A stretch of 64,000 nucleotides of DNA from Botryllus schlosseri. Lineage: Eukaryota. Location of the stretch: positions 28,894,001 through 28,958,000 of the forward strand of contig CM119372.1 of the NCBI GenBank assembly GCA_051294905.1. The letters are read 5' to 3'. This document shows positions 1-56,214 of the stretch, piece by piece; positions within the stretch are counted from its first letter, which is position 1; the number at the start of each line of letters is the position of its first letter. The notes under the pieces were generated by a model. It was not told the DNA's origin, did not search any database, and was given only the letters and a program-made list of their open reading frames with translations. Both the position numbers and the translations under genes were made by a program.

Positions 1-26
1 GGTGTCAATAAATTTCTGGAAAACTC

Positions 27-1866: not shown

Positions 1867-1909
1867 TTTGTTGTATGAAATTGGGTGTCAATAAATTTCT
1901 GGAAAACTC

Positions 1910-3066: not shown

Positions 3067-3483
3067 CCATCCAACCATACTAATTAAATAGCTCACAGTG
3101 CATGGAAAAGAATTCGTGGCCAGCGGCTCTCGTAACGACACTCACTTACATGCATTCTCGCAAAGCCGCTGATTATTATAAATATATCAAATACTTGGTT
3201 TGTTGATTTATTTTCCCCCTTTGGAACGAACGTGGCCACTGGCCATATAACACGTTTTGAGTTGGCCTACACCTCGATTTGTGTTCGTAGACCTGCGATA
3301 TAGCAATGGCGTCTGACCTTTACATCGTTATAGTGTCTGTTTCTGGGTAAGATTTCACGATTAGCGGTTAGTAGGCCTTTTCCGTAGCTCTCCTGAACTG
3401 ATCCTACACACTTCATGTATTTTGGTAAGCACCTGAATTGCGCCGAGAATTGCTGACAGTCAGTTATGAAAGTAATCTAGACG

Positions 3484-28488: not shown

Positions 28489-29110
28489 AGTTAGCTGGAT
28501 GGGGATATCCCGAGATTCCTGATCCTCTAAATATGATACGGTCTCAAATTAAAGACAAAATCATTAAATAATTTTTGCAACTGCCATTTCTCCAGAAATT
28601 CACCGTCTTCTAACTGCAGCTAAAATATTCATTGAATAATCCACATTTCACTCCAGCTGCATAAATAGATCTATTTGGTATGTCAGGAATGTGCGTGTAC
28701 GCGCTTCAACCCTTTTGGATATTTCTGGCACGATTTCTTCACTTCTGCACTTACTGCTCGACACGACCTGCATACAGTCCTATTTCATTGGTTATTTGGA
28801 AACATATCATGAGTAACTCACTCTGCTTCCACATGATGTAACAGTATGGACTCTCGAGGGTTGCGTTTAAAACAAAAATCAATCTAAAACAAACATGTTC
28901 AAAACAAGGCCCTTACTGTTTAAAACATGTTTTTTAAGCTATGACGTCACGGATATAGGATTGTGACGTCATAGTGAATTGACATTGACAATTGAAAATA
29001 TAGGGTAAATATAGCTCGCCTTTGACGAAATATCTGTACTATCGCTGTTGAACCGACTATTTTGAGGATTCCAACCATCCCATATCGATATACGTCGGGT
29101 ATATATCGAG

Positions 29111-30098
29111 TAGTGTTAGGATCAAGTCACTACCTTCGAGTCACGAGTCATCTTGAGTCATTGCACATTTTGACTCGAGTCAAGTCAAGTCAAGTAAATC
29201 GATTTTCAAATGTGACTCGAGTCAAGTCAAGTCACCCGATTTTCGGAGGTGACTCGAGTCAAGTCGAGTCAAGTCAAGTCACGAGTCAAGTCACGATTCA
29301 AGTCAAATTGAATTTTCGAAGTATGAGTGATGATGCAAAGTCATTACATTTTGCTAACTGGGTGAAGGACAGATTAATTGGCCATTGATCTTGAAACAAA
29401 TAACGAATATAAAGTTAAATATACATGCAAAAAGGTGCTGTATGGCTCACGAACACGTAGAGCTGTTAATAAAATACGTGAGTAACTGTATACATAGCTA
29501 AATAACTACAGTCCGGTATTATCAACCAATATAGAGGATCGAATACGAAGCCTCGAAGTTGTACAAATTGATGCAGTACATACACTATCCATCTACGCAT
29601 CCGTGAGAATATAAACGCATAAGCTATATTCTTTCGATTTAAATCGTACAAGAGTGTTGGTAAAGGTGAGCACTGCGCAATGTAAGCACTGAGCCGTCTA
29701 GGAAACAGAGATACGTTGATATTACATTAATCTACTGCTACTACGACAACGTAAGCTGTGATCGTTTCGTTTGCGGTCAATTTATTTATAATGTAACAAT
29801 GGAGGATCAGTGAAACTTATACACTCAGTGAATGACTGGTTGCTCACACAAGTGACACTTGCGTATCGGGAACAAACCGAACAATCAAGATATATAAGAT
29901 AGGGTGATCTAATCGACACTGTTTATGACTTGATGACTTGAAATTGACTCGTAAATTTTGCTCCGAGTCACTAGTCATTCCCTATTTCTGAAGCAACTCG
30001 TCAAGTCAAGTCAAGACGTTTTTGCAAAGTGACTCGAGTCAAGTCAACTCATACGAAAAAGTTGACTCGAGTCCCAGACTCTAGTCATCCCAACACTG
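29111..30098. mobile_element. hAT-type element with GACTCGAGTC/AAGTC subterminal repeats; truncated copy at ~56590-57340
   Basis: TIRs TAGTGTTAGGA / TCCCAACACTG; TSD ATATCGAG/ATATCGGG. Confidence 0.88.
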
Positions 30099-33166: not shown

Positions 33167-34964
33167 CACGAGAGACTGAAGACGATCCCAATCGGCCTCA
33201 ATTTATATGTGATAGAGCCTACTGGGAGTCCAGCACTATCATGTTTTCTAATTTTTGCGAATACAGCTCGACTCAGTTTTGTATATTACGAATATCTTTT
33301 ACATTTTTAGAAGGGTCACTGAATTCAAGAAATCTAGGGGCACATAATTGCGCGAAGCTGAATCAATCTGCAGCAAAATATTCTAATTTATGATATATTT
33401 TATAAAATACGAAAATATGAGATGGGCATGGTCCCTGACTACGCCAATGAGTCGAAACTGCTGCTTTTTAAGTCATAACATCCAAAACTTCGCGGTCAAG
33501 CTGATCCAAGTCTGGGTTGACCTTGCAAGTTCACAATAAGTTATTACAGTTATTTTTTGATAATATAACTAAATTCCGAAATGACCGAGCCATTCAAAAC
33601 CTCCTCGTGGCCTAGTGTTGCCCTCGTGCCACGGTTTGGCCACCCCGGATCTACACTTTATAGCAGGGGTCTCAAACACGCGGCCACGGGCCGCATGCGA
33701 CACGCGAGACCATTTTGTGCGGCCCGCGACGGCATTTTGGATTTTGGATTTTGGACTTATTGGACGTATTACAGGAGTGGGCAAACTGCGGCCCGTGAGG
33801 ACATTTTGTGCGGCCCGCAAAGGCATCGAGAAATGTAGTAGATATTGATAAAATGCGCAGTACAAATCTACTTACTAGAACTAGAGGGAATTCGCTAAAA
33901 TTTTTCCTAAGATATTTCATCATGATATTGATTACGTATAATATTAATAATGTATATTTTGGTTTTATTGTTGGCGCATGAGCCCGGCCCATGGTCGGGA
34001 GCCACGCATTTTGAAATGTTTCGGTTGCTAAACATCCAAGGAAACCAAAACGGAAATGAATTAGTTTGGATAAAAAATGTGATTTTGGGTTAGAACTTAG
34101 AACTCCAACTTTCTGTGGTGTATCTGAACAAACCCTTTCGTGCGTGTGCTGGGTAGTGTCATCCTATGCACAGTTAGGTGCAAATTGTTCATAACTTCGG
34201 CCTCAATTAATTCATAACGAGTTGTCCAAATCAATACAAAAAGCGAAAAGTTGAAGATGAATGCTTTGCAATCAATAAAGTATCAACTGATAGGTACTTC
34301 TGTTTCGTCATCGGAGGTAACGCAATATGTATTACTTTTCATAATATGTCATTATTGTAATAAATTCGATGCTGTAATTCGAAACATCACTTGAATCCGA
34401 ACATTCTAATTTTAGACCAAATGTATCAAATTACGGGGTGCCAAATAAATCAACCGAATTAATCAAATGTTTAGGGCACCAGTAAATTATGTTGATCTCG
34501 TCCTCATAAAAGAACGTGAAGAAGGCAAGTTCAACACTGTAAGCCTTTTCCAAAAAGTTATTTAAATGTAACAGGCTGGTTATGATGATGTAAGCTTAAC
34601 CCAAAGCAGAATCAGCATATCTATGAGCCGATCGCTTCTCACATATTCAAATTTCCATCCTGTCATAAGAATCGGCACAGCCTACTTCCATCCCAAATTT
34701 TGACGACTTGATTGAAGATGGCAAGCTTGTAAAATATCATCAATGTTTCTGACCCATTTGTATTATCATCAAACCAATGTTAAAATTGTTTAATCCATAT
34801 CTATGTGTGCATGTTTACTACAATAATCAAATAAAAGTATGCGTCTTGGCTTATAATTTCGATTATACTATAATGTGGCCCGCGAATGGATTCATATGTT
34901 CAATGCGGCCCGCGAAGTAGTAAGGGAAAGCAATTTATACGCCGGCCAATCCCAGAAGGCCACG

Positions 34965-35335
34965 TCGCCTTAATTGCCACGCCTACATTGCCACATCATC
35001 CGCCCATTGCCGCACCTATGGGACACCCCTTGCCACATCATCCACCCATTGCCACATCATCTGCTACGTCATCAGCCGCGGCCATTGCCACATCATCCGC
35101 CTGTCGCCTTAATTGCCACGCCTACATTGCCACATCATCCGCCCATTGCCGCACCTATGGGACGCCCCCTGCCACATCATCCACCCATTGCCGCACCTAT
35201 AGCACACCCATTGCCACATCATCAGCCACACCCATTGCCACATCATCTGCTACGTCATCAGCCACGCCCATTGTTACATCATCCATCCATATAACGCCCA
35301 TTGCTACATCAACGCCCATTGCTACATCATCATGA
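34965..35335 (+). repeat. Subterminal tandem repeats (CCCATTGCCACATCATC-like); mirrored at ~52885-53157 and ~54488-54590
   Basis: Many degenerate ~20-nt units start ~50 bp inside each terminus. Confidence 0.9.
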
Positions 35336-38290
35336 TTATGCGTACTGAGCTGTTTTTTGACTTTTTTGCGTCAAATCTTACCTTAGCTAGAATCGACAGA
35401 TTTTCTATTATGTGTATTTAGGACTATGTATTTAAATTCCTATTCAGATTATACATAAATGCGAAAACTATGATGTCTATGCAAGGCTATATTCTCCGGA
35501 TAATATTATTAATATCAAAATTCTACACATCATCACTAATTACTTAATATAAAATCCGATTTTGAGCGCTGCGACTTGATAATATGAATCCCTACGCTTC
35601 TGATGCATGATTTTTGCGATAAGGACCCAGGTAACATTCAGAGTCTGCAACGATTGTTTGGATATACATTATAGCAATACCCCACTAAACTATAGGCGGT
35701 TATATTACTCTATTGGTCAGAGATAACTCATCCTTCCATATTTTTAAACTTGATTTTACGTATACAAGTTACGCTCTCTGCAGCCCCACATTTTACGAAT
35801 TATTTTCATTAGACGCAGGCAAGCGATTCTCCAGTTCGGAGGTACGGAAACAAATCACTCGCATGTGCGCGTTCCGAATAGTCTTGTAGAATTTTCTAAA
35901 GTCGTAACAGCTTAGTAGCATATACGCGAATCCCAAGGTGAAAATAATCGAACGAACTATAGCCGCAGGCGTGCGATTCGCAGGGCTTTATTTATACAAA
36001 CACTTTCGATGCCTGTACGCGAACCCCAGCGTTATAACGATTAGGTCTAATTAGCACGTTCTGAAGCCGTAAATTTAGTCAACATCATTGAGATGTCCAT
36101 GATTTAAATATGGTGATCGAGTGTGACAATAGCACTCGTCAAGGTTAGACAAACATAACCTTAAACTACTCTCTACTTCACAAAATATAAAGAACGAACA
36201 CCTTCGCCGCAGGTACGCGATCCCCGACGTTATAATGATAGTGCCAAATTAGCCGCATGAAAGCGAGTCTAATGAATATAACGACAGACACCAAGTTAGT
36301 TGAAAAGTAAAACTAATCGTGACCGATGCAAGACGGATTGAAACAGCGCTTTCGCTCGATTCTTGTAGTGACCACATTTCATACGGTTCAGTCCTTTTCA
36401 TGTCACTAGAATAAGGGTGAATAAACCGACAGTGAAACGCCACCGACGACTTATAACGTAATAATGTAAGCTGCGTCGGGTGCTGCTTTAATGTTAGGAG
36501 CGAATATAGTAGAAAGTCCACGTCTGGACACCTGTAAGCAGCTGCGCATACTACCGTAGTAAAACGCATAGCAGAATTCACGCAAAAGTCGATATTGCTT
36601 TGTGATGATTTTGATGTTGTTCCATACCGATTGGGAATATAGGACTCCTAATTCCTTAACTAACTACATAATCCCTAGTAACGTAGTCAGACGCATAACG
36701 GAATTTACGCAAATCGGTATTGCTCTGCGATAATTTTGACCACTATGTTTTGATAATAACTTGCTTCCGAGAAATAGATAACATTCATTATACGTTAGAT
36801 GATACTTTTCCTTTATATTCTATTATGTGTATTTAGGGCTAATGCGACATCACTATGTTGGCGACAGGCCTGATTTGAACACGCTAATTTTGCAAATTAA
36901 ACTTATCACCCACCACGAACACTCAATGAAGAGCACCCTGGAGCACCCACATAAATGCTCCACAATTTGTGACGTATAATATACTGAGCATATAATAAGC
37001 TGACAAAACTGATACTTGAGTACTCCGAAATGAACAAGTATTTTACCTTTACACGACGTTTTTGTAAAATGAATACTAATGGTACGCGAATGATCATAGA
37101 CTAAGCTTGCTTTCAGAGTTGGAAACTAAATGCATATGAAAATTTAACTATGTTTTCCCCTCACGCATCAGATGTAGGCCTACTCAAGTGTTTATGAGGC
37201 GGCGAATAGTTCGAAGGTTGTTGGTATGCAAGGACGTCACATAGAATTGTGGAGTTTTCTGTAAACTATAATCCAGTGATCTATTTTCAATCACTATACT
37301 TTTATTAATCTAAACTAAGTACTGTTAGTAGGCAAATCCTAGAAAAGTATCCTCTGATAAAAGCAGGAGTAATTCGTTATCTGTGAAATAAATAGATAGC
37401 GCGCAATATGAGCGGTGTTACGATGACTGACAAATACTTTGAATTAATGCATAGAAGTAGCGATTTCGAACTACGTAAAAAGTTAGTCGAGCTCACGCAT
37501 TTTCCATTTTCAAAAGTCGACGTTTTTTGTAAAATGAATAATAATTTTAATGAAAAATAAAAAAGAGCGAAAAATTACATTTTATCTCGGAACGCAACAA
37601 GAAAAATCGTATGAACTTGTAAACTACTTATTTATGACATAATAATAATTCTACTTGTACACTTATTCACATTTTATACCACTTTTAGTAATACTTAACG
37701 GTTTCAGTTTTAAATAAAACTCGGAATATAAAGTAATCGAAAAATTCGGTAACCAATTTCGCGTAGGCTATGCATACATATGAGGGAAGTTACATCAACG
37801 CGTGTTAACTAGTTGTATTATGTAGCTTGTAATTCATGCAAGTTTCGAAACTTCTACACCGAGTCTTTTTAAAGTAGATAGAAACGAAAAACAATTACGC
37901 CTAGGCTATGCATACAAATGAGGAAAGTTCCATCAACGCGTGTTAACTAGTTGTATCGAGTTATCGAATGAGTTTTTTCCTTACATCAAAACAACTAGAA
38001 TGTGTAACTACATTAAAAAAACGTTCCTAACCCTTAACGCACCCGCGATAAATCGTACAAGCAACAAGTTTCGAGTAATCGAAATCGCGCCCCCTGAATT
38101 CAAAGCTTATTTCGAGATCTAAGCTACTTTGAAAATGAGGATCCTAGGATTTGCTTGAGTTTCATCCAGTGGCGGCTCGTGACAATATCGGGTGGTGGGG
38201 CAAGGGCTGCAAGCGACTTTTTATCAAGATGACGTCACAATGGCGTTTTCCAACGTAAACAAGTAACTTGGTGGTACGGACTACGTACGG

Positions 38291-39857
38291 CAGGGGTTCT
38301 CAACCCGCGGCCCACGGGCCGCATGCGGCCCGCAGACGATTGTTTTGCGGCCCGCGACATCTTTCATCATAAACACAATTATTGCTGACACGGTATTGTA
38401 ACAAATTAATTTAGATACTTGGCTCTTTTATCGCACCGTCCTTGTTTCGTTTGATAATAATTTTTGAACGCAGGGGTTCTCAAACTGGGAGGCGCGCCCC
38501 TTTGGAGCGTGAAAGCATCTGAAAGGGGTGCGACGCTGCGGTCAACTGAAAAAAATTTTCGCGCTGCGCGCAATTTGTCTTCAGTTCATAGTTATTTCTC
38601 TGTGTATAGTCCGAATTCCATATTTGAGAATTCTCTCATCAACAGTCATAACCTTCCATGCCATCAAACTAGCCGTTTGTAGCATTCTGGTTGCATTTTG
38701 TTATATGACGATAAGAGAGCACGAAATTATTCTCTATAAAAAAAGGGGGTATGTCTGAAAAAGTTTGAGAACCACTGCTTTAATGTGCTCTCGTTTCTTG
38801 ATATATGCTCGACTTCAGATTGTTACTGTTTTGAATCGGTATTCTGCTGGACTCTGGTTCAAGTGAATCCCGCTACGTAGTTAGCCTGCAATTTTAAAGA
38901 ATGTGTGACTCACTGCGAACGGTTGTTGAGATTGCCGACAACGTTACAGACGCATCGTTCAAAATTACTTGGAATATCGCTAAATCCTAGAAATCTGCTA
39001 CGGAAGGTGCGATTTCAATAAGACCTTCACATACTGTGCGAATATCAGCTGTTTCCGGAACTTAGCAGCAAAGACAATATCACCAGACAAATTTCGAAGA
39101 TACAGTCGTCTGATTCAATCGTGTCCAGACGAGTTACGTCAATGTCAGTCGGTCGCATGTTCTTAAACACGTTGCCTAGTAGGTACTGCTTTAACCCAAC
39201 CTTGGACAAATCCACCGACATTGCATAACTAATTATCTGGTTGAATTTTATCGGAGTGGACATATATGCAGAGGAAATGCTGGCTGGGCAAACGTGGTGA
39301 GGGGGCCTGCGAAAAATATCAGCTTGACAAAGCTAACTCTGTAACTGTTGATGTAGGGCTCCAGGCATGGAAGGAATGGAGAATGGTTGATTGGTTTGCT
39401 CAGAAATGGTCCCGAACGCCAGACTTCCTCTCATATCACTCAGAGCTCACTCAATGTGATAATGGCCTCTGTAACGCAAAATTTACCATCATTTTATAAT
39501 TGCTCACTCAAGCATTGAAACAGAGAGTTCGGTTCTCTGGTGGAAGGGTTTTAAGTTGCATATACCGACCTGGCAATGAATGCAATGCACGCTCCATGAA
39601 GGGATTTAATTGCGCCGCTAGAAGATACATATTCTCAGAATAAGCAGCAGCTGCAAACGTATGAACGCTGTCCATTGATGCTTTATAAATTATAATGCAT
39701 AAAAATGTACTAAATGCCCGTATACGAGTGGTAAATAGGCTGCAGTAGCCTAAATTTAATTGCAGCGCACAAATACACGGTAATATTGCTATGCGGCCCG
39801 CAGCGTATTTTGCTGTTAAAATGCGGCCCGTTACACAAGAGAAGTTGAGAACCCCTG
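38291..39857. mobile_element. hAT element nested in 38167-41592
   Basis: TIR CAGGGGTTCTCAAC; perfect TSD ACGTACGG. Confidence 0.92.
38471..38777. mobile_element. 307-bp hAT MITE nested in 38291-39857 (relative at ~4160-4456)
   Basis: TIRs CAGGGGTTCTCAAACT / AGTTTGAGAACCACTG; TSD degenerate. Confidence 0.8.
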
Positions 39858-42033
39858 ACGTACGGTAACACGAACTTCCCGACAACAGTGATTTTAACGT
39901 ATGTGCCGCGAGAGGTCTGCCGGTGAGCTGTGACTTGAAGTGTGGTAACTGCGTAAACGGCGTACGGAACAAAGATTCGACACGGTTCATGTTCGCACTA
40001 TACCTGACTAATTATCTGCAGCAATGGAAATGACTATAACTCGAGAGATTGCGTAAGCCTAACTGGCTGGAGACTGTCACACGACACATACGGCTTACGG
40101 TCTATAGTGTCTATATGTCTGCTGCAAAATCGCCTTGGGAAAATATATTACCGAATAAATACGTGGATGAAAGCCGAAAACTTGGTACACTGTTACATGA
40201 AATCATCGAGAAATAGCCTCATGACCGTTTTCGGTATGGTACACTGTCAAAATTAATACGAACACACCAACACCGAATTTTGCGTAAGATTTACTGAGGA
40301 ATAGGCTAATCAAGCGATCAGCTCTTAGCCGCCATCGAAAACGAAACAGCTATCACGCTTGACAGGGGTTGTAATTGTAAGCAAATGGCCTGAAGGCCAC
40401 AATTTCACGGTGAAATTGACATTGGAGAATATAAAATAAAAGTAAATATTTGAATGCAAACCGAGGATGTTAGTAAACTGTTTCATGATATCATCATCTC
40501 ATCACCTATCTCAGTATGGAACACAGTTAGCGTTAACACAGATACACCGGCTTTTGCGTGAAATCCGCAATGCGTTAGGTGGGCTAAGTGTCAGATCAGC
40601 GCACATCTCTACCATACTCGACCTTAATAACGAAATTGCTGCCCTAATCATTGAGTGCCAACCTTGAGACTAGGCACAGCGTTCGATACTAAAATCAAGA
40701 CATACCATGCAAAAGCTCCTGACGGATCTAGGTAAGGAGCATCGTTAAAATCAATGGAGACCAATACCGGCTTTGCGTAAAATATGTTTGCGATAAATGA
40801 CGAGTCAGCTCTCACTCGACTTAGGAAACGAAATTACCACAAACACAGTACAGTGACAAACTTGAAACTTGGTACAGCGTTCGATACTAACATTAAGACT
40901 TACCGTACCAAATGTCATGACCGATCTCGGTATGGAACATCGTCAAAATCAATGGATACCAATACCGGCTCTTGAGTAAAATCTGTTTGCGATACATGAC
41001 GGTCAGCACACACTCAACTTCGGAAACGGAATTACTACCCTAAACTTTAAGTAGAAACCCTGTAACTAGGGACAGTGTTAAATACTACCATCACGACATG
41101 ACATACCAAGTTTCAAGAATTATCATGGTGTGAAACACCATCAAAATCGACCTAGACCAGCAAAGGTCGACTAAACGCATATGACGGTAACCGAGTTCAG
41201 ATATAGATACGATTGTTACATCACACCTTAAGGGCGACTAGGCTATGTTGCCCCGGTTGCTCGGTAATTTTATGAATAGGAGAGAGTAAATCACTGTTTC
41301 TTTATTGTGCGCGACTTTGAGAGAATAGACAGTGAAAGCTTGTTATGAGCGCTACCGGGGCATGCCCCGGCTAGGCATTCGCAAAGCGAAAACACGGAAG
41401 AGAATTCGATTTTCGCAGACTTCGCTATATATGGGCGGGCATTTACAAGCGAAAGGACAAGAAGAATACGATTTTCGCTGTGATTTCGGTATATATAGAT
41501 TGCTGTGCGTCTCTAAATGGTAAAGAACTGTTATTGAACAGAATTTTAGGCGGGGCAATGCCCCAGTTGCCCTATAGGACGAGCCGCCACTGGTTTCATC
41601 TATATTTTACAATGCGTTTTCGCGTTCCAGAATGACTTATGTCAATGAAAAATAGCCATTGATCATGGTTTTGTTTTTGAAAGATGTCGCGATGCCGGTG
41701 AATTTTATAGTTCTTGTAAAAAGTTGTTTGTACACAATATATGTTTAAAGTAAGTCCTACGCATTCATGATTTCGTCCGAGTTCGTATTTTAGTAATATA
41801 TACTAATTTACGATAGCGCGTTTGTAACTTGTGCAAGTACAGGAATATCATAGTTCTTGAACCGTGCTCAATGCTTAATAGAGCATTTTTGCTATTTTTC
41901 ATCGCCATAAGTCATTCTGGACCGCGTAAACGCATCGTACGATATAGATGAAAGTTATGCAAATCCTAGGATCCTCATTTTCAAAGTAGCTAAGATCTCG
42001 AAATAAGCTCTGACTTGCTATTCTCCTCAAAGC

Positions 42034-42291
42034 ATGGAATTATCAAGAGTATCACCTTCGATCACTGAAGAAACGGATGAAATTATATTCGAAGCATATT
42101 CCTTGACCAGGAATTTTATCATGTACGAACTCGACGGCTCATGCGTTAAGGTAAATACGAAAGCAGAGAGAACCTTACGTCGAGTTGGGGATGAAATATT
42201 CGAGCGACATCGAACTGTCCTAAACGCAGTCTCCAAACGTCTCCGCTATTTGCACTTTTTCACATTTTATAACACCTTAAGTAGTACTTAA
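42034..42291 (+). pseudogene. Truncated Bcl-2-family (Mcl-1-like) ORF with BH4-like and BH3 regions, left arm
   Basis: TLRRVGDEIFERHRTVLNAVSKRL resembles the Mcl-1 BH3 region TLRRVGDGVQRNHETAFQGMLRKL. It is preceded by a BH4-like helix EAYSLTRNFIMYEL. No BH1, BH2 or TM. Confidence 0.7.
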
Positions 42292-42882
42292 CAGTTTTAG
42301 TTTTAAATAAAATACGGAATATAAACTAATCGAAAAATTCGGTTTTTGCGTGCATCTGTTTTGCGGGAGCGTATAGCACGTACCTATACATAGTCAACTT
42401 TAATAACTGAATTACCATGCTTAACATTGAATCCCAACTCTAAACTTGATACGTAGATGTAGGACATTATGGCAATGCACCATGCTAAATTTCATCACAC
42501 ATCTAATGATGGAACACCTTTAAAACTAACGCAGTCGAATACCGACTTTTACGCGTATATCTGTTTTGCGTGAACTTAGCATATACCTATACATAGTCAA
42601 TTTTAATAGCAGAATTACCGTGTTAAACATTGAATTCCCACCTTGAAAGTTGGTACGCGGTTATAGGACATTATAAAAATGCACCATACCAAATCCCATC
42701 AGACATTTCATGATGGAACAACTTTAAAACTAACGCGGCTCTACATCAACTTTTTGCGTACATCTGTTTTGCGGGAGCGTATAGCACGTACCCATACATA
42801 GCCAACTTTAATAACGGAATTACCATGCATTGAATCCCAACTCTAAACTTGATACGTAGTTGTAGGGCATTATGGCTATGCA

Positions 42883-45194
42883 CAGGGGTCTTTAAATGGT
42901 ACTGAAGTACAATTTAGCAAAAATAGCTTATTTTATACTCAACCAGAATTTTAAATTATACTAAAATATACTTTTATGAAAAAATGGCTTTCCTGGCGTA
43001 GGAGGGTACAATACTGAGACTTTTATGTGAAAACAAGCTCGTGTTTTGCATTACTCCACCTGCTGATGTTTCAAGTTTATTGATCTAACCAAAAATCACA
43101 CAAGTTTCTGCAGCTCTTGAAACTGTTTTGCATGAAGGCAGCCTTCGAGCAAGAAATCGGTCAGGCTCTCCCGGTAGTCATTCTTTACAATTCCGATGGC
43201 GGAAAAATCCGCCTCCACTGGTGCCGTCGTTGGAAACACGGTCGAAAGCGTTCCGCAGAAGTCCTTTAGGGTGGGCAGGTGGATGTTCATACCCTCGAGG
43301 ACACCCCGAGCGTCCTTGAAGTTGCTGTCAGGGCCCTCCTCCTCCAACGAAATGCGGAAATTGTCATGGTCTCTGTAATAGTCCCGCAGTTGAGCGTGCT
43401 CCGTCTCGACATCCTCGAGTTTTTCTTCGGCCCACCTAGCTGCTCGAAGCCGTCCTGACTGTTCGCGAAGCAAGTCAGAGACACCTGAACGACGTAACTT
43501 GACCAGTTCCTTCAGAAGCGTCGGTGGTATCTTGTTGTTTTTGATGTCCGCGTTGTTTGCCAGGAGATCACAGACGCCATGAAGTAGGGTGCAAACCAGA
43601 AGGCCGACTCCCCTTTGAACAGTTTTCCTTGTAGCAGCTGAGATTTCATTAAGTTTGGCCTGCACAAAAAGTCCCAAGTCGAGCATGAACTCCTGAACAT
43701 TTGTCATGGAAACAGAAACTGATTCCACTCTGACGTATTCTAATTCACCCTGGAAGCCATCCTCCTCACGAAGCTCTGTAGTTGCTGAACACAAGTCCTT
43801 CAGGTTGTCACGCAACTTCATCAGCTTGGCGTGCTGCTCGGTGACCAGAGTTTTCTTGCCTTGCGGGGACTTGACCACTTTCAGGACCTCTCCGGCGACA
43901 ACGTCAAGAGCGACAACGTATCCACCACTCTGGCGATGGGCGTGCAGGAGGATTTTTTTCATCGAGATACTGCAGCACGCGTATCTTGTTCGCAACAAAC
44001 CATCCAGTCACTCACTTCATTGAAGCCCACCGAGTGTCGACAAAGCGTGGGCATGTTGTTTGCATTTCAGTCTGGAGCTTCTGCTGTCGGCGCAGAAATC
44101 CGATCAAGCTGTTCATTTGAGTAATGAAAGTTTCATTGGCAAGCTTCGAGTAGGCCTTTTGCACAACCAAGTCGAGTTGGTGCAGTCCGCACCAGAAGTG
44201 GAAAATCTCTTGTGAAGCTTCCTTTTGAAGCAGGGTTCCAACACCACCGACGTGGCCTGTCATTGTCGGTTCACCGTCGCTAGTAAACCCTAACAACTTG
44301 CTCCTCAAATCCGAACACAAAATCTCAAGAACAGAGGTCAACAACAGAGGTCAACATTTGACAAATTTTTTTGGCAGTTTTCGCTTCAAACACAGGAACA
44401 GCAATCACGTGAAAGTTGTGAATATCACCATCCATGGTTGTACTCCGCTTGTTACCACAATCGACGGCAACAGAAAATGCCCAGGACTGTTCCAACAAAT
44501 CTTTGAGACCCTGCAAGTTCACAGCCACGATCATTCGAACGACTTTCGCACAATACCCTTCACTGCAGCCCGTATAGAATGCCAGACCCGTCTCTTCCTT
44601 GACTGAAGCAACGAATTTGCAAGCCTGTTGAAACGACGCACCGTCACGAATGAATTTCCTCACCAATTGGAACATTCGCCCCGACTTGAATTCAGAAAGA
44701 AACACAGAATCGTCTTCATCACATCGTTTGAAAATACTCAGAGCACGTTTTTGAGTGGTCTCTTCATGATCGTTGGGGTGGAAAAGCAGCTCCCAGATTA
44801 TCTGCCCCACTATTTCTTTGCAAATCTTGAACTTCAGACTGCCTTCTCCTTCGAAATGAGCATTCAGAGTACTCCTAGTGTCCTGTTTGTTGTCGAAGTA
44901 AGTCAGCTTCAGTTCCTTTGAAAGTGTACTGTACTCGTTCCATCGTGCCTTATGCTGGCATCTGCACCCCCGCCGCTGTCGGTCTCCCCACCCAACCGCC
45001 AGACAGCACCTGTGGGAGCCAGCAGGGTCCGAACGGAAACGATAAACCCGCCAATGAGTTTCTTAGAGACTCCTGTGAACTGACAAACACCGAAAAACGG
45101 TATACAAAAAAATCCTTATTTTATACTCGACAGAAATTTTATTTTATACTAAATTGTACTTTTGAGACCAAAAAGTACAATTTAAAGTGGCCTG
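42883..45194 (-). mobile_element. hAT-superfamily transposon (2312 bp) with a frameshifted transposase, left arm only
   Basis: TIRs CAGGGGTCTTTAAATGGTACT and (rc) CAGGCCACTTTAAATTGTACT; perfect TSD GCTATGCA. Empty site in the right arm at ~48773-48780. Confidence 0.92.
43096..44943 (-). pseudogene. hAT-type DDE transposase in at least three reading frames
   Basis: Motifs in order: WAFSVAVD (D1), GFTSDGE (D2), WCGLHQLDL (CxxH), TRWAS, and VFPTTAPVEADFS (E). Frameshifts near 44340 and 44010. Confidence 0.88.
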
Positions 45195-45234
45195 GCTATG
45201 CACCATGCTAAATTTCATCACACATCTAATGATG

Positions 45235-45526
45235 GAAATTGCTTACTAAGAGAAGTATATTGTTGTATACACAATAGTGGAGAGAATATTTAAAATGTAG
45301 TAAGCAGGCCGATGGGTATTCGTTTAGTTGTATAGGCATAAAAAACATTCCCGCGCGCTCTTAAACAAAACACTTCCTAACCCTACCACCTAATACTAAG
45401 ACGCGCGCGGGAATGTTTTTTATACCTATACAACTAAACGAATACCCATCGGCCTGCTTACTACATTTTAAATATTCTCTCCACTATTGTGTATACAACA
45501 ATATACTTCTCTTAGTAAGCAATTTC
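45235..45526. repeat. Central hairpin: ~128-bp near-perfect inverted repeat with a ~33-nt loop
   Basis: gaaattgcttactaagag...cattcccgcgcgctctta pairs with taagacgcgcgcgggaatg...ctcttagtaagcaatttc. Confidence 0.95.
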
Positions 45527-46789
45527 TCGTGAATTCCGAAACACATTGACGCGTGTTAACTTCTATATTCGGTGATAGTATCATTTTCATGTCTGATAAT
45601 GTTACTTGTCAAGGTGATACAAACGTAAGCTCAAACTACTTTAAAATTTAAAGTCTTAGCAAATTTTATCTAACACTGAAACTGTCGAGTACCGATAAAG
45701 TACTCTAAAACCTAGTCACTTTTTACGTGGAAGGAGAACATAGCGAAGTACTTGTACATTTGCAGTACTTAAGTATAGGTTTGGCCTGCTTGCGCTATAC
45801 TTAATGAAGTGATTACCTATTTACACTGCATCTACTTCTATTTCAGAGTTTTTCGCTTTTTCGACCAAACTATACCTCAATACTTACTTTTTAACTAACT
45901 GGCAAATCATTACTTCTTGTACTTTAGTGGGACTTTACTGCTACAATTTACTTTTTTCAGTGGATCACTGGTCTTGGTGAGTGTTGTCAGTTTCATCCAT
46001 ATCCTACGAAAAGCAACTTGAGTACTTCACGGGTTCGTATCATCGCAAATAATATATTCTAAACATGTTTAGATAGCGAGGAGTTGTAATTATAGGTGAA
46101 AGGGACAAATTTTATCTAAAACTGTAACTGTAAAGTACCGATAAAGTAGTCTAGAGTATTTTTTATGTTTATTCAGCTCAACGAATATCTTCATTTGGCC
46201 TGCTTACTACATTTTAAAGATTTTCTACGCTAGAAAAATCGCTGTAACATGATAAGTATATTATAATTAATCTTATCAGCGCGGCATAGTACATTCGAGT
46301 AAATTCATTAAATTAGCTTATGTTTATGAAATTATTTGGTTTCCGAATTCTATCTAAAACTGAAACCGACGAGTATCGGTAAAAGCAGTCTTAAACCGTA
46401 GACACTTATTACGTGGAGGGAGGCGATAGCGAAGTACTCGTGCATTTTGTACTACTCAAGTATAGGTTTTATCTGCTTGCACTAAACTTAATCAAGTGAT
46501 TAACTATTTACACTGCATCTACTTCTATTTCAGAGTATTCGGTTTTCAGGTAAACTATACCTGCAATACTTACTTTTTAACTCACTCGGAAATCATCACG
46601 TCTTGTACTTTACTAGAAATTTACTGCTACTAAATGTTGAAATGTACTGTTTTCAGCGGTCTTGATGAGTTGTGCTAGTTTCATCTATATCCTACGACGC
46701 ATTTTCTCGAGTGGGATGTTATAGGAAGCAAGACGAATCATTGTAAAAGTGTTGAAACTTAATTACATATGTAATTCCATCACTAAAGT

Positions 46790-49310
46790 TGATCACGCAT
46801 AGGTACGTGCTACACTCCTGCAAACAGATTCACGCGAAGTTGGTATAGAACTGCGTTAGTTTTAAAGGTGTTACATCATGAAATGTCTGACGAAATTTGG
46901 TATGGTGCATTGTTATTATGTCCTACAACCGCGTATCAACGTTCAAGGTGAGAATTTAATGTTTAGCATGCTAATTCTGTTATTAAAATTGACTATGTAT
47001 GGGTATATGCTATGTTCACGAAAAACAGATATGCATAAAAGTTGGTATTCGACCGCGATAGTTTCAAAGGTGTTCCATCATTAGATGTGTGATGAAATTT
47101 AGCATGGTGAATTGCCATAATGTCCTATAACTACGTATCAAGTTTCGAGTTGGGATTCAATGTTAAGCATGGTAATTCCGTTATTAAAGTTGGCTATGTA
47201 TGGGTAGGCTACGTGCTATACGCTCCCACAAAACAGATGTACGCAAAAAGTCGATGTAGAGCCGCGTTAGTTTTAAAGTTGTTCCATCATGAAATGTGTG
47301 ATGGGATTTGGTATGGTGCATTGTTATAATCTCCTATAACCGCGTACCAACTTTCAAGGTGGGAATTCAATGTTTAACACGGTAATTCTGCTATTAAAAT
47401 TGACTATGTATAGGTATATGCTATGTTCACGCAAAACAGATATGCGTAAAAGTCGGTATTCGACTGCGTTAGTTTTAAAGGTGTTCCATCATTAGATGTG
47501 TGATGAAATTTAGCATGGTGCATTGCCATAATGTTCTACAACTACGTATCAAGTTTCGAGTTGGGATTCAATGTTAAGCATGGTAATTCCGTTGTTAAAG
47601 TTAACTATGTATAGGTACGTGCTATACGCCCCCACGCAAAACAGATGTACGCAAAAAGTCGATGTAGAACCGCGTTAGTTTTAAAGTTGTTCCATCATGA
47701 AATGCGTGAGGAAATTTGGTATGCTGCATAATCACAATGTCCTATACCTACGTACCAAGTTTCAAGGTGAGGAGTCACATATTAGCATGATAATTCTGTT
47801 ATTAAATCTGACTATGTATATGTACACGCTACCGAAAACAGATTTAGGCAAAAGTTGCTATAGAACTGCGTTAGTTTTAAAGTTGTTCCATCATGAAATG
47901 TGTGATGAAATTTGGTATGCAGCATAATCACAATGCCCTGGAGCTCATTTAGATACGTTTTTTAATTTAGTTATACATTCTAGTTGTTTTGATGTAAGGA
48001 GAAAATCATTCGATAACTCGATACAGCTACTTTAACACGCGTTGATGTAACTTTCCTCATTTGTATGCATGCATAGCCTACGCGAAATTGGTTACCGAAT
48101 TTTTCGATTAGTTTATATTCCGTCTTTTATTTAAAACTGAAACTGTTAAGTATTACTTAAAGTGTTATAAAATGTGACAAAGTGTACAAGTAGAATTATT
48201 ATTATGTCATGAACAAGTAGTTTACAAATTCATACGATTTTTCTTGTTGCGTTCCGGGATATAATGTAATTTTTCGCTCTTTTTTATTTTTTATTTTTTC
48301 AATAAAATTAGTATTCATTTTACAAAAAACGTCGTGTAAAGATAAAGTACTTGCAAAATTTGACATGGTGCATTGTCATAATGTCTTACAACTGCGTACC
48401 GAGTTTCAAGGTAGGGAGTCGAATATTAACATGGTAATTCCGTTAATAAAATTGACTATGTTTAGGTACGTGCTACGCTACGGAAAAACAGATTTAGCCA
48501 AAAGTCTGTATAGAACTGCGTTGGTTTTGAAGGTGTTACATCATGAAATGTCTGACGAAATTTGGTATGGTGCATTGTTATTATGTCCTACAACTGCGTA
48601 CCAACGTTCAAGGTGAGAATTTAATGTTTAGCATGCTAATTCTGTTATTAAAATTGACTATGTATGGGTATATGCTATGTTCACGAAAAACAGATATGCG
48701 TAAAAGTCGGTATTCGACTGCGATAGTTTCAAAGGTGTTCCATCATTAGATGTGTGATGAAATTTAGCATGGTGCATAGCCATAATGCCCTACAACTACG
48801 TATCAAGTTTAGAGTTGGGATTCAATGCATGGTAATTCCGTTATTAAAGTTGGCTATGTATGGGTACGTGCTATACGCTCCCGCAAAACAGATGTACGCA
48901 AAAAGTTGATGTAGAGCCGCGTTAGTTTTAAAGTTGTTCCATCATGAAATGTCTGATGGGATTTGGTATGGTGCATTTTTATAATGTCCTATAACCGCGT
49001 ACCAACTTTCAAGGTGGGAATTCAATGTTTAACACGGTAATTCTGCTATTAAAATTGACTATGTATAGGTATATGCTAAGTTCACGCAAAACAGATATAC
49101 GCGTAAAAGTCGGTATTCGACTGCGTTAGTTTTAAAGGTGTTCCATCATTAGATGTGTGATGAAATTTAGCATGGTGCATTGCCATAATGTCCTACATCT
49201 ACGTATCAAGTTTAGAGTTGGGATTCAATGTTAAGCATGGTAATTCCGTTGTTAAAGTTGACTATGTATAGGTACGTGCTATACGCTCCCGCAAAACAGA
49301 TGCACGCAAA
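46790..49310. repeat. ~205-bp degenerate tandem array with alternating variants, interrupted at ~47940-48350; mirrored at ~42350-42882
   Basis: aaaacagat recurs at ~47022, 47230, 47433, 47638 and 47836, and continues from ~48365. Confidence 0.9.
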
Positions 49311-49363
49311 AACCGAATTTTTCGATTAGTTTATATTCCGTATTTTATTTAAAACTAAAACTG

Positions 49364-49621
49364 TTAAGTACTACTTAAGGTGTTATAAAATGTGAAAAAG
49401 TGCAAATAGCGGAGACGTTTGGAGACTGCGTTTAGGACAGTTCGATGTCGCTCGAATATTTCATCCCCAACTCGACGTAAGGTTCTCTCTGCTTTCGTAT
49501 TTACCTTAACGCATGAGCCGTCGAGTTCGTACATGATAAAATTCCTGGTCAAGGAATATGCTTCGAATATAATTTCATCCGTTTCTTCAGTGATCGAAGG
49601 TGATACTCTTGATAATCCCAT
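49364..49621 (-). pseudogene. Mirror copy of the truncated Bcl-2-family ORF, right arm
   Basis: Identical to 42034-42291 except E2G. Confidence 0.7.
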
Positions 49622-52600
49622 GCTTTGAGGAGAATAGCAAGTCAGAGCTTATTTCGAGATCTTAGCTACTTTGAAAATGAGGATCCTAGGATTTGCATAA
49701 CTTTCATCTATATCGTACGATGCGTTTACGCGGTCCGGAATGACTTATGGCGATGAAAAATAGCAAAAATGCTCTATTAAGCATTGAGCACGGTTCAAGA
49801 ACTATGATATTCCTGTACTTGCACAAGTTACAAACGCGCTATCGTAAATTAGTATATATTACTAAAATACGAACTCGGACGAAATCATGAATGCGTAGGA
49901 CTTACTTTAAACATATATTGTGTACAAACAACTTTTTACAAGAACTATAAAATTCACCGGCATCGCGACATCTTTCAAAAACAAAACCATGATCAATGGC
50001 TATTTTTCATTGACATAAGTCATTCTGGAACGCGAAAACGCATTGTAAAATATAGATGAAACTCAAGCAAATCCTAGGATCCTCATTTTCAAAGTAGCTT
50101 AGATCTCGAAATAAGCTTTGAATTCAGGGGGCGCGATTTCGATTACTCGAAACTTGTTGCTTGTACGATTTATCGCGGGTGCGTTAAGGGTTAGGAACGT
50201 TTTTTTAATGTAGTTACACATTCTAGTTGTTTTGATGTAAGGAAAAAACTCATTCGATAACTCGATACAACTAGTTAACACGCGTTGATGGAACTTTCCT
50301 CATTTGTATGCATAGCCTAGGCGTAATTGTTTTTCGTTTCTATCTACTTTAAAAAGACTCGGTGTAGAAGTTTCGAAACTTGCATGAATTACAAGCTACA
50401 TAATACAACTAGTTAACACGCGTTGATGTAACTTCCCTCATATGTATGCATAGCCTACGCGAAATTGGTTACCGAATTTTTCGATTACTTTATATTCCGA
50501 GTTTTATTTAAAACTGAAACCGTTAAGTATTACTAAAAGTGGTATAAAATGTGAATAAGTGTACAAGTAGAATTATTATTATGTCATAAATAAGTAGTTT
50601 ACAAGTTCATACGATTTTTCTTGTTGCGTTCCGAGATAAAATGTAATTTTTCGCTCTTTTTTATTTTTTATTAAAATTATTATTCATTTTACAAAAACGT
50701 CGACTTTTGAAAATGGAAAATGCGTGAGCTCGACTAACTTTTTACGTAGTTCGAAATCGCTACTTCTATGCATTAATTCAAAGTATTTGTCAGTCATCGT
50801 AACACCGCTCATATTGCGCGCTATCTATTTATTTCACAGATAACGAATTACTCCTGCTTTTATCAGAGGATACTTTTCTAGGATTTGCCTACTAACAGTA
50901 CTTAGTTTAGATTAATAAAAGTATAGTGATTGAAAATAGATCACTGGATTATAGTTTACAGAAAACTCCACAATTCTATGTGACGTCCTTGCATACCAAC
51001 AACCTTCGAACTATTCGCCGCCTCATAAACACTTGAGTAGGCCTACATCTGATGCGTGAGGGGAAAACATAGTTAAATTTTCATATGCATTTAGTTTCCA
51101 ACTCTGAAAGCAAGCTTAGTCTATGATCATTCGCGTACCATTAGTATTCATTTTACAAAAACGTCGTGTAAAGGTAAAATACTTGTTCATTTCGGAGTAC
51201 TCAAGTATCAGTTTTGTCAGCTTATTATATGCTCAGTATATTATACGTCACAAATTGTGGAGCATTTATGTGGGTGCTCCAGGGTGCTCTTCATTGAGTG
51301 TTCGTGGTGGGTGATAAGTTTAATTTGCAAAATTAGCGTGTTCAAATCAGGCCTGTCGCCAACATAGTGATGTCGCATTAGCCCTAAATACACATAATAG
51401 AATATAAAGGAAAAGTATCATCTAACGTATAATGAATGTTATCTATTTCTCGGAAGCAAGTTATTATCAAAACATAGTGGTCAAAATTATCGCAGAGCAA
51501 TACCGATTTGCGTAAATTCCGTTATGCGTCTGACTACGTTACTAGGGATTATGTAGTTAGTTAAGGAATTAGGAGTCCTATATTCCCAATCGGTATGGAA
51601 CAACATCAAAATCATCACAAAGCAATATCGACTTTTGCGTGAATTCTGCTATGCGTTTTACTACGGTAGTATGCGCAGCTGCTTACAGGTGTCCAGACGT
51701 GGACTTTCTACTATATTCGCTCCTAACATTAAAGCAGCACCCGACGCAGCTTACATTATTACGTTATAAGTCGTCGGTGGCGTTTCACTGTCGGTTTATT
51801 CACCCTTATTCTAGTGACATGAAAAGGACTGAACCGTATGAAATGTGGTCACTACAAGAATCGAGCGAAAGCGCTGTTTCAATCCGTCTTGCATCGGTCA
51901 CGATTAGTTTTACTTTTCAACTAACTTGGTGTCTGTCGTTATATTCATTAGACTCGCTTTCATGCGGCTAATTTGGCACTATCATTATAACGTCGGGGAT
52001 CGCGTACCTGCGGCGAAGGTGTTCGTTCTTTATATTTTGTGAAGTAGAGAGTAGTTTAAGGTTATGTTTGTCTAACCTTGACGAGTGCTATTGTCACACT
52101 CGATCACCATATTTAAATCATGGACATCTCAATGATGTTGACTAAATTTACGGCTTCAGAACGTGCTAATTAGACCTAATCGTTATAACGCTGGGGTTCG
52201 CGTACAGGCATCGAAAGTGTTTGTATAAATAAAGCCCTGCGAATCGCACGCCTGCGGCTATAGTTCGTTCGATTATTTTCACCTTGGGATTCGCGTATAT
52301 GCTACTAAGCTGTTACGACTTTAGAAAATTCTACAAGACTATTCGGAACGCGCACATGCGAGTGATTTGTTTCCGTACCTCCGAACTGGAGAATCGCTTG
52401 CCTGCGTCTAATGAAAATAATTCGTAAAATGTGGGGCTGCAGAGAGCGTAACTTGTATACGTAAAATCAAGTTTAAAAATATGGAAGGATGAGTTATCTC
52501 TGACCAATAGAGTAATATAACCGCCTATAGTTTAGTGGGGTATTGCTATAATGTATATCCAAACAATCGTTGCAGACTCTGAATGTTACCTGGGTCCTTA

Positions 52601-53157
52601 TCGCAAAAAATCATGCATCAGAAGCGTAGGGATTCATATTATCAAGTCGCAGCGCTCAAAATCGGATTTTATATTAAGTAATTAGTGATGATATGTAGAA
52701 TTTTGATATTAATAATATTATCCGGAGAATATAGCCTTGCATAGACATCATAGTTTTCGCATTTATGTATAATCTGAATAGGAATTTAAATACATAGTCC
52801 TAAATACACATAATAGAAAATCTGTCGATTCTAGCTAAGGTAAGATTTGACGCAAAAAAGTCAAAAAACAGCTCAGTACGCATAATCATGATGATGTAGC
52901 AATGGGCGTTGATGTAGCAATGGGCGTTATATGGATGGATGATGTAACAATGGGCGTGGCTGATGACGTAGCAGATGATGTGGCAATGGGTGTGGCTGAT
53001 GATGTGGCAATGGGTGTGCTATAGGTGCGGCAATGGGTGGATGATGTGGCAGGGGGCGTCCCATAGGTGCGGCAATGGGCGGATGATGTGGCAATGTAGG
53101 CGTGGCAATTAAGGCGACAGGCGGATGATGTGGCAATGGCCGCGGCTGATGACGTAG

Positions 53158-54487
53158 TGTAACGGGGCGCCATCTATGGCTAGTGATGACGTCATGCATA
53201 TTGACGAAGCGTGTTGTTATTGATGCGTTCACTCTCTTGGATGTACGCCGTGCGAGGTGCACGTGCTGTATTTACTGGTCCTGTTTCCATGCGCCTGTGC
53301 TGCGATCTGATAGCTTGAAGAATAAAGAACTTACAACAACACTGTTACAAATGGCGAGCACTCCAGTCTTCAAGCCTTTCAAGAGTCAGTGAGCACCTGA
53401 GCGGTAACAAAGTGTCATGGATTTGTTGCGTAAGGATCATGAATATATTCGTACAGAGATCAAGCGGGCTCATCGCCGGATTGACGACATGGTTGAGGCC
53501 CAGAAGAGTATTCTCGATCAAGTATTGAGTATTGTGCAAAGTTTTGGAGCCACGCCTGCGCATCCATTGCGGGTTGTTAAACCCTATAATGAGGTTGAAT
53601 CGTCGCGAATTGTTCCGAGAAAGCATGAAAATGTTGGTGCACTTGTTTTGCCTGGTCTGGCTGATCCTGTTTTGTCCGAGGTGTCTGCTAAGTTGGATGG
53701 TTCCTTAGCACATCTTGAAGATTGTGGATCTGTGATGGTGTCTGCTAAGTTGGATGATTCCTTAGCGCATCATGATGACTGTAGGCATGTGATGGAGCCT
53801 GATGTGTCAGCTAAGAGGGATGATTCCTTAGCGCAACTTGAGAATTGCGGGTCTGTTGTGACATGTCATAACATTGAAGTTGACCCGAGCTTGGACTTGA
53901 AAGAGTTGACCGTTTTCGAGAAAATCTGGAATAAGTATAATGCTCCGTATGTTCTGTTGCCGACGGAAGACAAAACGTACTGCGTCCGTACTGATGTCAG
54001 CAAGTTGAATTCCATTACTGTACAAGACGTTATCAAATGGTGCGGTGAAGAAATTGAGGACCTTGCTTCGCATAACTGGGTGGATGGATCGACAGACCTG
54101 ATGATGATCGACAAGATTGTTTGGAATTTCATGTTTTTATATATTGTTTTGTCTCGATATCAGCTATTTGTTTGGCCTAGTCTTCACGATGTTGTATGTG
54201 TCTTTTTGCCTTTGATTCGGTTTACCATTTGATGTGTTATTGGTTTAGAGATAAATGTTCCTCATGTTACCTCTAAAAAATTGGAGGGGGGTATATGTAA
54301 CGGGGCGCCATCTATGGCTAGTGATGACGTCATGCATATTGACGAAGCGTGTTGTTATTGATGCGCTCACTCTCTTGGATGTACGCCGTGCGAGGTGCAC
54401 GTGCTGTATTTACTGGTCCTGTTTCCATGCGCCTGTGCTGCGATCTGATAGCTTGAAGAATAAAGAACTTACAACAACACTGTTACA
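53158..54487 (+). mobile_element. Small non-autonomous LTR retroelement (TRIM-like, 1330 bp), right arm only
   Basis: 192-bp LTRs TGTAAC...GTTACA (53158-53349, 54296-54487) with one visible mismatch; 4-bp TSD GTAG. PBS-like TGGCGAGC follows the 5' LTR and PPT GGAGGGGGG precedes the 3' LTR. Empty site in the left arm at ~35064. Confidence 0.93.
53417..54232 (+). CDS. 271-aa orphan ORF filling the LTR element interior
   Basis: Uninterrupted ORF spanning most of the interior. N-terminal coiled-coil-like segment, three VSAK(L/R)D(G/D)SLA repeats and a hydrophobic C-terminus. No RT, IN or zinc-knuckle motifs. Confidence 0.55.
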   Translation: MDLLRKDHEYIRTEIKRAHRRIDDMVEAQKSILDQVLSIVQSFGATPAHPLRVVKPYNEVESSRIVPRKHENVGALVLPGLADPVLSEVSAKLDGSLAHLEDCGSVMVSAKLDDSLAHHDDCRHVMEPDVSAKRDDSLAQLENCGSVVTCHNIEVDPSLDLKELTVFEKIWNKYNAPYVLLPTEDKTYCVRTDVSKLNSITVQDVIKWCGEEIEDLASHNWVDGSTDLMMIDKIVWNFMFLYIVLSRYQLFVWPSLHDVVCVFLPLIRFTI

Positions 54488-56214
54488 GTAGCAGATGATG
54501 TGGCAATGGGTGGATGATGTGGCAAGGGGTGTCCCATAGGTGCGGCAATGGGCGGATGATGTGGCAATGTAGGCGTGGCAATTAAGGCGACGTGGCCTTC
54601 TGGGATTGGCCGGCGTATAAATTGCTTTCCCTTACTACTCCGCGAGCTCAAAAGTTTGCCCAGCCCTGACTTATTGTGACTCCGAACGCCGTGACTTGAT
54701 ACAACAACGGGCGAAACAAACCATGAAACTGTTATGGGGAATAGTAATATATCAAAAGGTCGTAACTTCCGTTGTGTATTTAGATATATAAGCAGGTCGG
54801 TATGGCAACCATTGGAATTATGTTGCCCTCTTGATGTATAGTTAGTTACATCATCTGTCATCTTGGGTCTCTTTATCCATGATATTATCGCCAATTGAAG
54901 TCGCCGAGTAAACTAGTGGTACGCCCCACAGCTATAACACCAACGGATTATTCGGTGATGGACATTTCTATTGCTATGGCACATTGAACATTATATTCAA
55001 GTTGTTATTGATCTGTTTCAATATATTCGAAGGTAAATCTAACGCTGATTTAATTTGACTTTGGTAATTACATGATAAATAGCCTAATTATCAGGGGTAT
55101 ATGGCTGAAACCCAGATTAGGCTGCTCTGATATCAGATCAATCTCGGTAAATTCTAAAATATTCCACCTATAATTGTGGCACGTCAAATGTCCGATAGCT
55201 GCAAAATTATAACGCGACAGCTTTCACGATGTCATAATGCATTTGTACTATCGCATGCTGATTATAACTAATTATTTTGACCAACTATGCCAAGTACAAC
55301 AACTATTTTATTCAAATATTTAAAAATATGATTTATTTCGTGCCAGGCGTGAATTCACAATAGTAGCCTAAATCACATTTTCACGATGTGTGAGGAATAT
55401 CAGTCTGCAAGGTCCCGTCAAATAAGGCCTACTTGGAAATACATTGAATACCCATATTGTTGGTGGTGCGGCCCGCGGCGCCATCAAAAAGTAAGGAAGT
55501 GTCCTGCGAGCACATTTGAGTTTGAGACCCTGCTCTGCAGCAATGAATCTAACTTCATGCCCAATTGCAGAAGATTGGTATAGCCTACTCCTCGTATCAT
55601 TTAACGCTGCCTGAGACAGTTGGGATGCGGTGTGCAGCGGGCGGTTGTGCTACGTACTAATCGACGCAGCTATTTCGGAGCCAACCCTCTCCTCGCCGGG
55701 ACACATGACGCTGGGGTGGCGAAAATGTTACTGGGCAAAGTGCGCTGATACAAAGACCGGCGGCAATAAAATCTAAGCACAAAATGACCGTCATGGATTG
55801 GACAGAACCTTCTATATCAGTGCTTCCCAACCGGTGGGTCGGGAAGCTATATTTCAGACGGGTCGCGAATAAATTCTAAATGCTACAGTTTTCTATAAAA
55901 TTTGCCAAAAATGGCAAACACCTTCTTTTCTCACGATTAGACGGGCAAATATCCCATCTCCTCTAAATTAAATTGTTTTTCTCCGTGCCGTAAGTCACGT
56001 TATCGCGCTCACAATCAAACAGATGACAAAGATTTTCGTGAGAGTCATATTCATTGGAGTGTAATTGAAATTGGATAGTGTATTTTATGTATGCCTTAAA
56101 ATTGGAAACCAATCATTCTTTCCTCCATGAACTTTGCGAAATTTGATTGGAAAATACAATCCAGCCCGATAAGAATCAGCTAACCATTGCCTCGACGCAA
56201 GCTATACGCGGGGC

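Follow-up and report, generated by a model that had tools for sequence, protein, structure and literature searches.

The window, i.e. the entire stretch of 64,000 nucleotides from Botryllus schlosseri analysed here, harbours an 85-residue open reading frame (ORF) that occurs twice, in mirror-image position, in the two arms of one mobile element (Table 1). The two copies differ at a single residue, residue 2; in both arms the frame is open to the stop and contains TLRRVGDE at residues 47-54, as an earlier note on this DNA had described. Searching all six frames of the whole window for the pattern L..[IV]GD[EDK] returned no matches beyond these two copies.

The ORF contains a BH3 motif, defined as Leu-x-x-x-[GAS]-Asp (PMC3847314), with its Asp present; of the four hydrophobic positions, HP2-HP4 fit, while HP1 is Ala and is followed by Glu. 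The BH4 motif given in the same source (aliphatic, aliphatic, x, x, aromatic, aliphatic) fits in part, with a Thr at the second of its four defined positions, and the stretch aligns with helix 1 of Bcl-xL via the ascidian relative P0004 described below. BH1 (NWGR) and BH2 are absent from the ORF and from the whole 64-kb window, and the ORF has no C-terminal TM anchor by its best hydrophobic 19-mer, which scores 0.39 vs 1.45 in P0004.

Table 1. Positions of the ORF, its motifs, the junction and the carrier element in the window
Feature	Position	Strand	Remarks
85-aa ORF, left copy	42034-42291	+	open reading frame
85-aa ORF, mirror copy, right arm	49364-49621	-	open reading frame
Bcl-2-homologous part, residues 1-72 (helices 1-3: BH4, BH3, next helix)	42034-42249	+	sequence comparison
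BH4-like motif, residues 24-29	42103-42120	+	3/4 positions fit motif of PMC3847314
BH3 core, residues 44-55 (HP1 Ala, HP2 Leu, HP3 Val, Gly-Asp, HP4 Ile)	42163-42198	+	
Truncation junction	42246-42252	+	3-nt gene/module overlap, then 1 mismatch and 2-nt gap
AT-rich module at junction	42253-42343	+	source of 13-residue non-homologous tail, stop codon and AATAAA at 42306
AT-rich module, usual context	37660-37750	+	89% to junction module; mirror 50471-50561
Central copy of module region	47949-48334	-	closer match to junction module: 94.5% at 48094-48184
Non-autonomous Maverick/Polinton-ended element	34916-54639	.	19,724 bp; ~12.6 kb minus three nested insertions
Left arm, outer part	34916-38166	+	mirrors 50055-53157 and 54488-54639; 4 differences in 3103 nt
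Left arm, inner part with ORF	41593-42882	+	mirrors 48772-50062; 4 differences in 1291 nt
Nested insertion, left arm only	38167-41592	.	8-bp TSD GTTTCATC, short TIRs
Nested insertion	42883-45194	-	8-bp TSD GCTATGCA, TIRs 14/18, broken transposase-like frames
Small LTR element, right arm	53158-54487	+	192-nt LTRs 99% alike, TG..CA, 4-bp TSD GTAG
Inner arm of 126-bp inverted repeat	41891-42016	+	ends 17 nt 5' of ORF ATG
~202-bp tandem repeats	42343-42873	.	further arrays 46853-47919 and 48356-49301

The carrier element

The element that carries the ORF has the termini AGTAGT//ACTACT (34916/54639) and is flanked by a 6-bp TSD, CCGCGA, at 34910-34915 and 54640-54645. Mavericks are defined by (AGT)2//(ACT)2 ends, a 6-bp TSD and terminal inverted repeats, all of which the element shares with the vertebrate Mavericks (Barreat and Katzourakis 2021, PMC8097293); it differs from these in that the core genes are absent. 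Its arms are terminal inverted repeats of ~4.6 kb, far above the usual Maverick length, and make up 73% of the ~12.6-kb core, whereas the inverted repeats of an Anolis Maverick measure 584 bp (PMC3014272). The left arm extends ~43 nt further at 45195-45237.

Neither pPolB nor an integrase, ATPase, protease or capsid gene was recognised among the 81 stop-to-stop frames of at least 60 aa in the element, none of which reached a Pfam cut-off, with one sub-threshold GW match; this null is weak, as the Bcl-2 ORF itself has no Pfam match either. Judged by its sequence, the carrier is a non-autonomous Maverick derivative without another recognised gene. The earlier note had called the element Polinton-like and the ORF its only recognisable cargo, and the ends and the TSD bear out the former, the Pfam search, with the weakness just given, the latter. 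It had also described the ORF as carried twice: both copies exist, but the doubling follows from the location of the ORF in an arm, a consequence of the long inverted repeats and not of two acquisitions.

The element is interrupted by three younger insertions, each flanked by a TSD of its own and each confined to one arm. We take the one at 38167-41592 to be hAT-like by the length of its TSD, and we infer that the one at 42883-45194, the frames of which match neither Pfam nor PDB entries, is a hAT element. The third (1.33 kb) contains a 271-aa ORF that includes an internal repeat of 57 nt and has no Pfam match; it appears to be a recent non-autonomous LTR element. The 126-bp inverted repeat upstream of the ORF is part of a 486-bp MITE-like unit, which is uninterrupted at 49639-50124 and shows no TSD. 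A 124-bp perfect foldback with a 44-nt spacer (45235-45526) is located exactly at the left arm end, again with no clear TSD, and the element centre holds diverged repeats (45660-46697, 79%) that include a word related to the AT-rich module.

Bcl-2 relatives and origin of the gene

A search of 1.84 billion proteins with the ORF returned four matches, three of them Bcl-2 relatives; the fourth, P0005, was set aside as a spurious match to a bacterial repeat protein. The unnamed 82-aa protein P0003 is 94% identical to the ORF over residues 1-72. P0004, the Styela clava bcl-2-like protein 2 (XP_039252627; PF00452), shares 52% identity over ORF residues 12-73 (E 2.2e-9), the identical TLRRVGDE and the layout of helices 1-3, which the ORF fragment spans according to the alignment of P0004 to Bcl-xL; it differs in being a full-length protein of 241 aa with NWGR (BH1), BH2 and a hydrophobic C-terminus (TM), while the ORF ends after helix 3. 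The unnamed Bcl-2 protein P0006 (157 aa, 41% identity, E 2.2e-4) is unbroken from BH4 to BH2 and ends just past the BH2 GGW, a site at which Bcl-2 and Bcl-xL genes have an intron. Both P0004 (E 5e-23) and P0006 (E 3e-24) pass the Pfam Bcl-2 model and contain NWGR, i.e. longer homologues that extend into BH1 exist, the absence of which the earlier note had named as an argument against its proposal. Pfam assigned no family to the ORF or to P0003.

Is the similarity more than a short shared word? When aligned to two full-length Bcl-2 proteins, residues 1-72 attain scores of 156 and 113, values that none of 2000 shuffles reached in either case. The score of residues 1-40 alone, without BH3, was reached by 2/2000 and 12/2000 shuffles and that of residues 56-72 alone by 0/2000 and 0/2000, while the tail, residues 73-85, stayed at chance level (1307/2000 and 1691/2000). 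Thus, the similarity extends beyond the core word to the BH4 side and to the helix that follows BH3. In these controls and in the match to a full-length Bcl-2 protein at E 2e-9 in a library-wide search, the idea of a chance BH3-like word in non-coding DNA, or of a fragment of a PAS fold, finds its answer. It could draw on the missing Pfam match, on the weak matches of the ORF to solved structures (Mcl-1, E 0.5-1.4) and on the ESM Atlas, where the top matches are bacterial PAS clusters (0.95-0.96) sharing at most 130/256 features; P0003 had no usable match there. PAS is a mixed fold, whereas the ORF model is all-helical, with two helices (pTM 0.32, a weak model from a four-sequence alignment). 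Taken together, we regard this reading as ruled out, with a negligible probability left to it.

Sequence comparison thus shows the ORF to be the 5' third of an ascidian-type gene for a multi-domain protein of the Bcl-2 family. This agrees with the BH4 and BH3 fragment proposed in the earlier note as far as protein matches and shuffle controls go; for the weak structure model, Foldseek found nothing at E 0.001 in either PDB or BFVD. The further attribute 'Mcl-1-like' goes back to the word LRRVGD and is not supported, as the full-length relative P0004 matches Bcl-xL/Bcl-2 best. No Mcl-1 is found among its best 60 PDB matches, and profile A1 matches Bcl-2 at 7e-18 vs Mcl-1 at 4e-15, which places the ORF relatives nearer to Bcl-xL/Bcl-2 than to Mcl-1.

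The full-length relatives found consist only of the annotated ascidian gene of Styela clava and one unnamed protein. Neither the ORF nor alignment A2 detected a relative in viral contigs, nor did the 28-nt element terminus have a match there, a null that is weak since the collection was judged poor in animal Mavericks; metagenome contigs yielded no relative. These results lend no support to a 'viral-type' gene, as it had been termed, and the simplest reading of the sequences would be capture from a tunicate host lineage. The gene may nevertheless have passed through an autonomous Maverick, because adintoviruses carry homologues of Bcl2 and IAP (Starrett et al. 2021, PMC8502044). These share with the present case the combination of a Maverick-type element and a Bcl-2 homologue, but encode PolB, integrase, capsid and protease, whereas the element described here encodes none of these and holds a truncated gene in its arms. 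The part of the PMC8502044 supplement examined contains no tunicate name, and the literature outside Repbase and subscription papers yielded neither a truncated Bcl-2 on a non-autonomous Maverick nor a tunicate Polinton with Bcl-2.

The truncation junction across copies and sequencing runs

The Bcl-2 homology of the ORF ends at residue 72 (position 42249), and the AT-rich module starts at 42250-42253. Past residue 72, P0003 continues for 10 further residues, 0/10 of which are alike in the ORF tail of the window. At the same position, 42249, two contigs from run X12 diverge from the window sequence; their continuation matches P0003 at 9/10 residues, and nowhere in the window does it find a better match than 21/30 letters. 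Among the contigs compared, loose ends occur at 42253 as well. The 30 letters visible at these loose contig ends and P0003, which stops at residue 82, both end before BH1, and a link of the near-identical sister copies to BH1 would rest on P0004 and P0006. The proposed truncation at an AT-rich module is thus supported: homology stops at 42249, sister copies continue differently and the module recurs within the element.

Splicing of the ORF as a first exon to downstream BH1/BH2 exons, which the earlier note had asked to check, could draw on donor-like sites present at 42151 and 42284. The window, however, contains no such exons, the sister copies continue without interruption at 42249, and P0006 runs uninterrupted from BH4 to BH2. 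Neither an intron-like joint nor a loose end at 42151 or 42284 appears among the joints and ends listed. We consider a spliced first exon highly improbable.

Part of the stretch is present in 20/24 listed runs from nine studies, three of which were compared directly, together with one raw single-cell RNA run. At least 0.72 of the words (expected share 0.39) occur in 15 runs from seven studies, which suggests window-type sequence; this estimate is indicative, as words are not independent and 3/15 runs were compared directly, one of them possibly the source. In this possible source sample, the DNA run X3 (4786 records compared), the window letters account for at most 4-18% of the summed depth at four ORF sites and ~10% at two module sites, where summed depth is not equal to copy number. 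Frameshifting indels in the family make up 6% and 8% of the summed DNA depth. These values point to a many-copy family with the window form as a minority.

Run X1, from another study, contains a contig that covers 42076-42345 with 0 differences, including the junction and reaching past the AATAAA at 42306; among its seven records the ORF is covered by exact window-type contigs only, the kind of run not being recorded. In X12, for which RNA is a guess, a contig matches 42220-42343 with 0 differences, having 30 letters on the gene side, one below our rule for bridging. The exact junction, present in at least one independent study, is thus neither an assembly error nor a private event, and the truncated form is a subfamily, not a private break. 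The X12 contig runs on into the module's usual downstream sequence, with no tandem repeat at 42343, and thus the gene break is older than the second rearrangement at 42343. X3 DNA contigs also jump from 42078-42083 to 42276-42277, with 21-22 letters on the short side; these weakly supported jumps are possibly separate, shorter deletions to the AT-rich module.

Fate of the truncated gene

We think it likely that the ORF is a truncated, probably inactive Bcl-2 cargo in a long-armed, non-autonomous Maverick subfamily. The intact gene was probably taken from a tunicate host lineage and, following the precedent of the adintoviruses, probably kept because it protects cells that support replication of the element or its helper. 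Where sister copies read on past residue 72, the gene in the window form passes into the AT-rich module of the element; the join presumably arose through a microhomology-mediated deletion or through a template switch while the element replicated. The overlap of three nucleotides, the mismatch and the 2-nt gap fit microhomology-mediated joining. The same junction is found in both arms, and we infer that the break came first and was then copied to the other arm by an arm-homogenising process. The truncated element would have kept spreading via the integrase and polymerase of autonomous Mavericks, helper enzymes that would act on the element ends and not require the cargo. A product lacking helices 4-8 and the TM anchor would form no BH3-binding groove and the presumed anti-apoptotic role of the intact gene would be lost; any 85-aa product would probably be unstable and have no effect. 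BH1-BH3 are required for the groove, and the TM region seems to be necessary for pro-survival activity (PMC3847314); with BH1, BH2 and TM lost, the ORF lacks what pro-survival Bcl-2 activity appears to require.

The frameshifting indels and the deletions to the module amount to a decay of the family, and three later insertions have entered the element, in support of a broken passenger gene. Against it stand the open frame, the stop and the AATAAA in both arms, and the coverage of the ORF in X1 by window-type contigs only, vs a minority of 4-18% for this type in the DNA run, a pattern to be expected from preferential transcription, should X1 be RNA; an exact junction contig is also present in X12, for which RNA is a guess. 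A comparison to a 90%-alike X12 contig favours the broken passenger, as 5/17 listed differences (of 21) are synonymous, in line with neutrality (P 0.43). On the other side, codons 43-72 show amino-acid changes less often (2/30) than codons 2-42 do (10/41; P 0.06), a hint of past constraint on BH3.

Could the short form itself be active? In such a case the truncated form would be expressed and its exposed BH3 helix would neutralise pro-survival Bcl-2 proteins, as in Bcl-xS or Mcl-1S, turning a survival gene into a death trigger within an element subfamily, perhaps as a poison neutralised by intact copies. We consider this unlikely. The core Leu-x-x-x-Gly-Asp, HP3 and HP4 are intact by the motif definition (PMC3847314), and BCLXS, MCL1S and MCL1ES, pro-apoptotic short isoforms of host genes, provide precedents in that a multi-domain Bcl-2 gene is cut to a BH3-bearing product (PMC9171138). 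These arise by splicing, however, whereas the ORF arose by DNA rearrangement in a mobile element and has no TM anchor; moreover, Ala at HP1 disrupts the binding of BAK-BH3 to BCLXL, and BH3 motifs alone have little predictive value (PMC9171138). The junction shared across studies, its place in the sole ORF form of X1, the AATAAA 3' of the stop and the seemingly more constrained BH3 half could all be read in favour of activity, although the constraint may stem from the intact gene. A TM anchor is kept in Bcl-xS and Mcl-1S, and BH3-only ligands have a small residue right after HP1, where the ORF has Glu. Ascidians are reported to lack caspase-9 (bioRxiv 10.1101/2021.12.21.473695), and thus mammalian rules of BH3 killing may not carry over.

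Expression of the ORF, raised by the earlier note, was not seen in the single-cell RNA run X23: among 28 reads (~3% of the run covered), 0 were at least 99% alike, 13 were 95-99% alike, 12 were 90-95% alike and three were below, and 0/28 bridged the junction. The reads differ from the window letter in 6/6 cases at 42089 and in 3/4 at 42046. In this ~3% of the run, relatives of the ORF are present at a low level and in both orientations, and the window form was not seen. Distinctly unlikely, in our view, is the stronger proposal that an expressed BH4-BH3 mini-protein kills or sensitises cells lacking an intact element-borne Bcl-2, a poison with its antidote in many copies in a tunicate genome.

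The two orientations of the reads, along with arms that are 99.7-99.9% complementary, would also be expected from an effect at the RNA level: read-through or two-way transcription of the near-identical arms could yield double-stranded RNA, and small RNAs derived from it could silence the intact Bcl-2 copies and the element family. The ORF copies, however, lie 7 kb apart with nested insertions between them, and the reads, small in number, derive from other copies, so that we hold such silencing to be very unlikely.

On present evidence, the ORF is chiefly a broken member of an interesting family. The range of Maverick-type elements with Bcl-2 cargo now reaches from autonomous adintoviruses to a gene-poor, long-armed tunicate satellite, which can lose its working gene yet recurs across samples; this recurrence is an argument that spread does not depend on the cargo. 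The junction common to both arms offers a marker for how the arms stay alike. Should the short form prove to be expressed and to promote apoptosis, it would represent a counterpart of Bcl-xS on a mobile element, a selfish killer in an animal.

Outside the element, direct repeats at 29086-29859 and 56567-57338, 82% alike and built of GAGTCAAGTCAA-type units, flank it on both sides, and positions 1-3400 form a tandem duplication with a period of ~1 kb (98% alike). An uninterrupted 1021-aa ORF at 12412-15477 on the minus strand contains Kinesin (E 4e-108) and KIF21A-like domains and is either an unusually long exon or a retrocopied gene of the kinesin-4 type.
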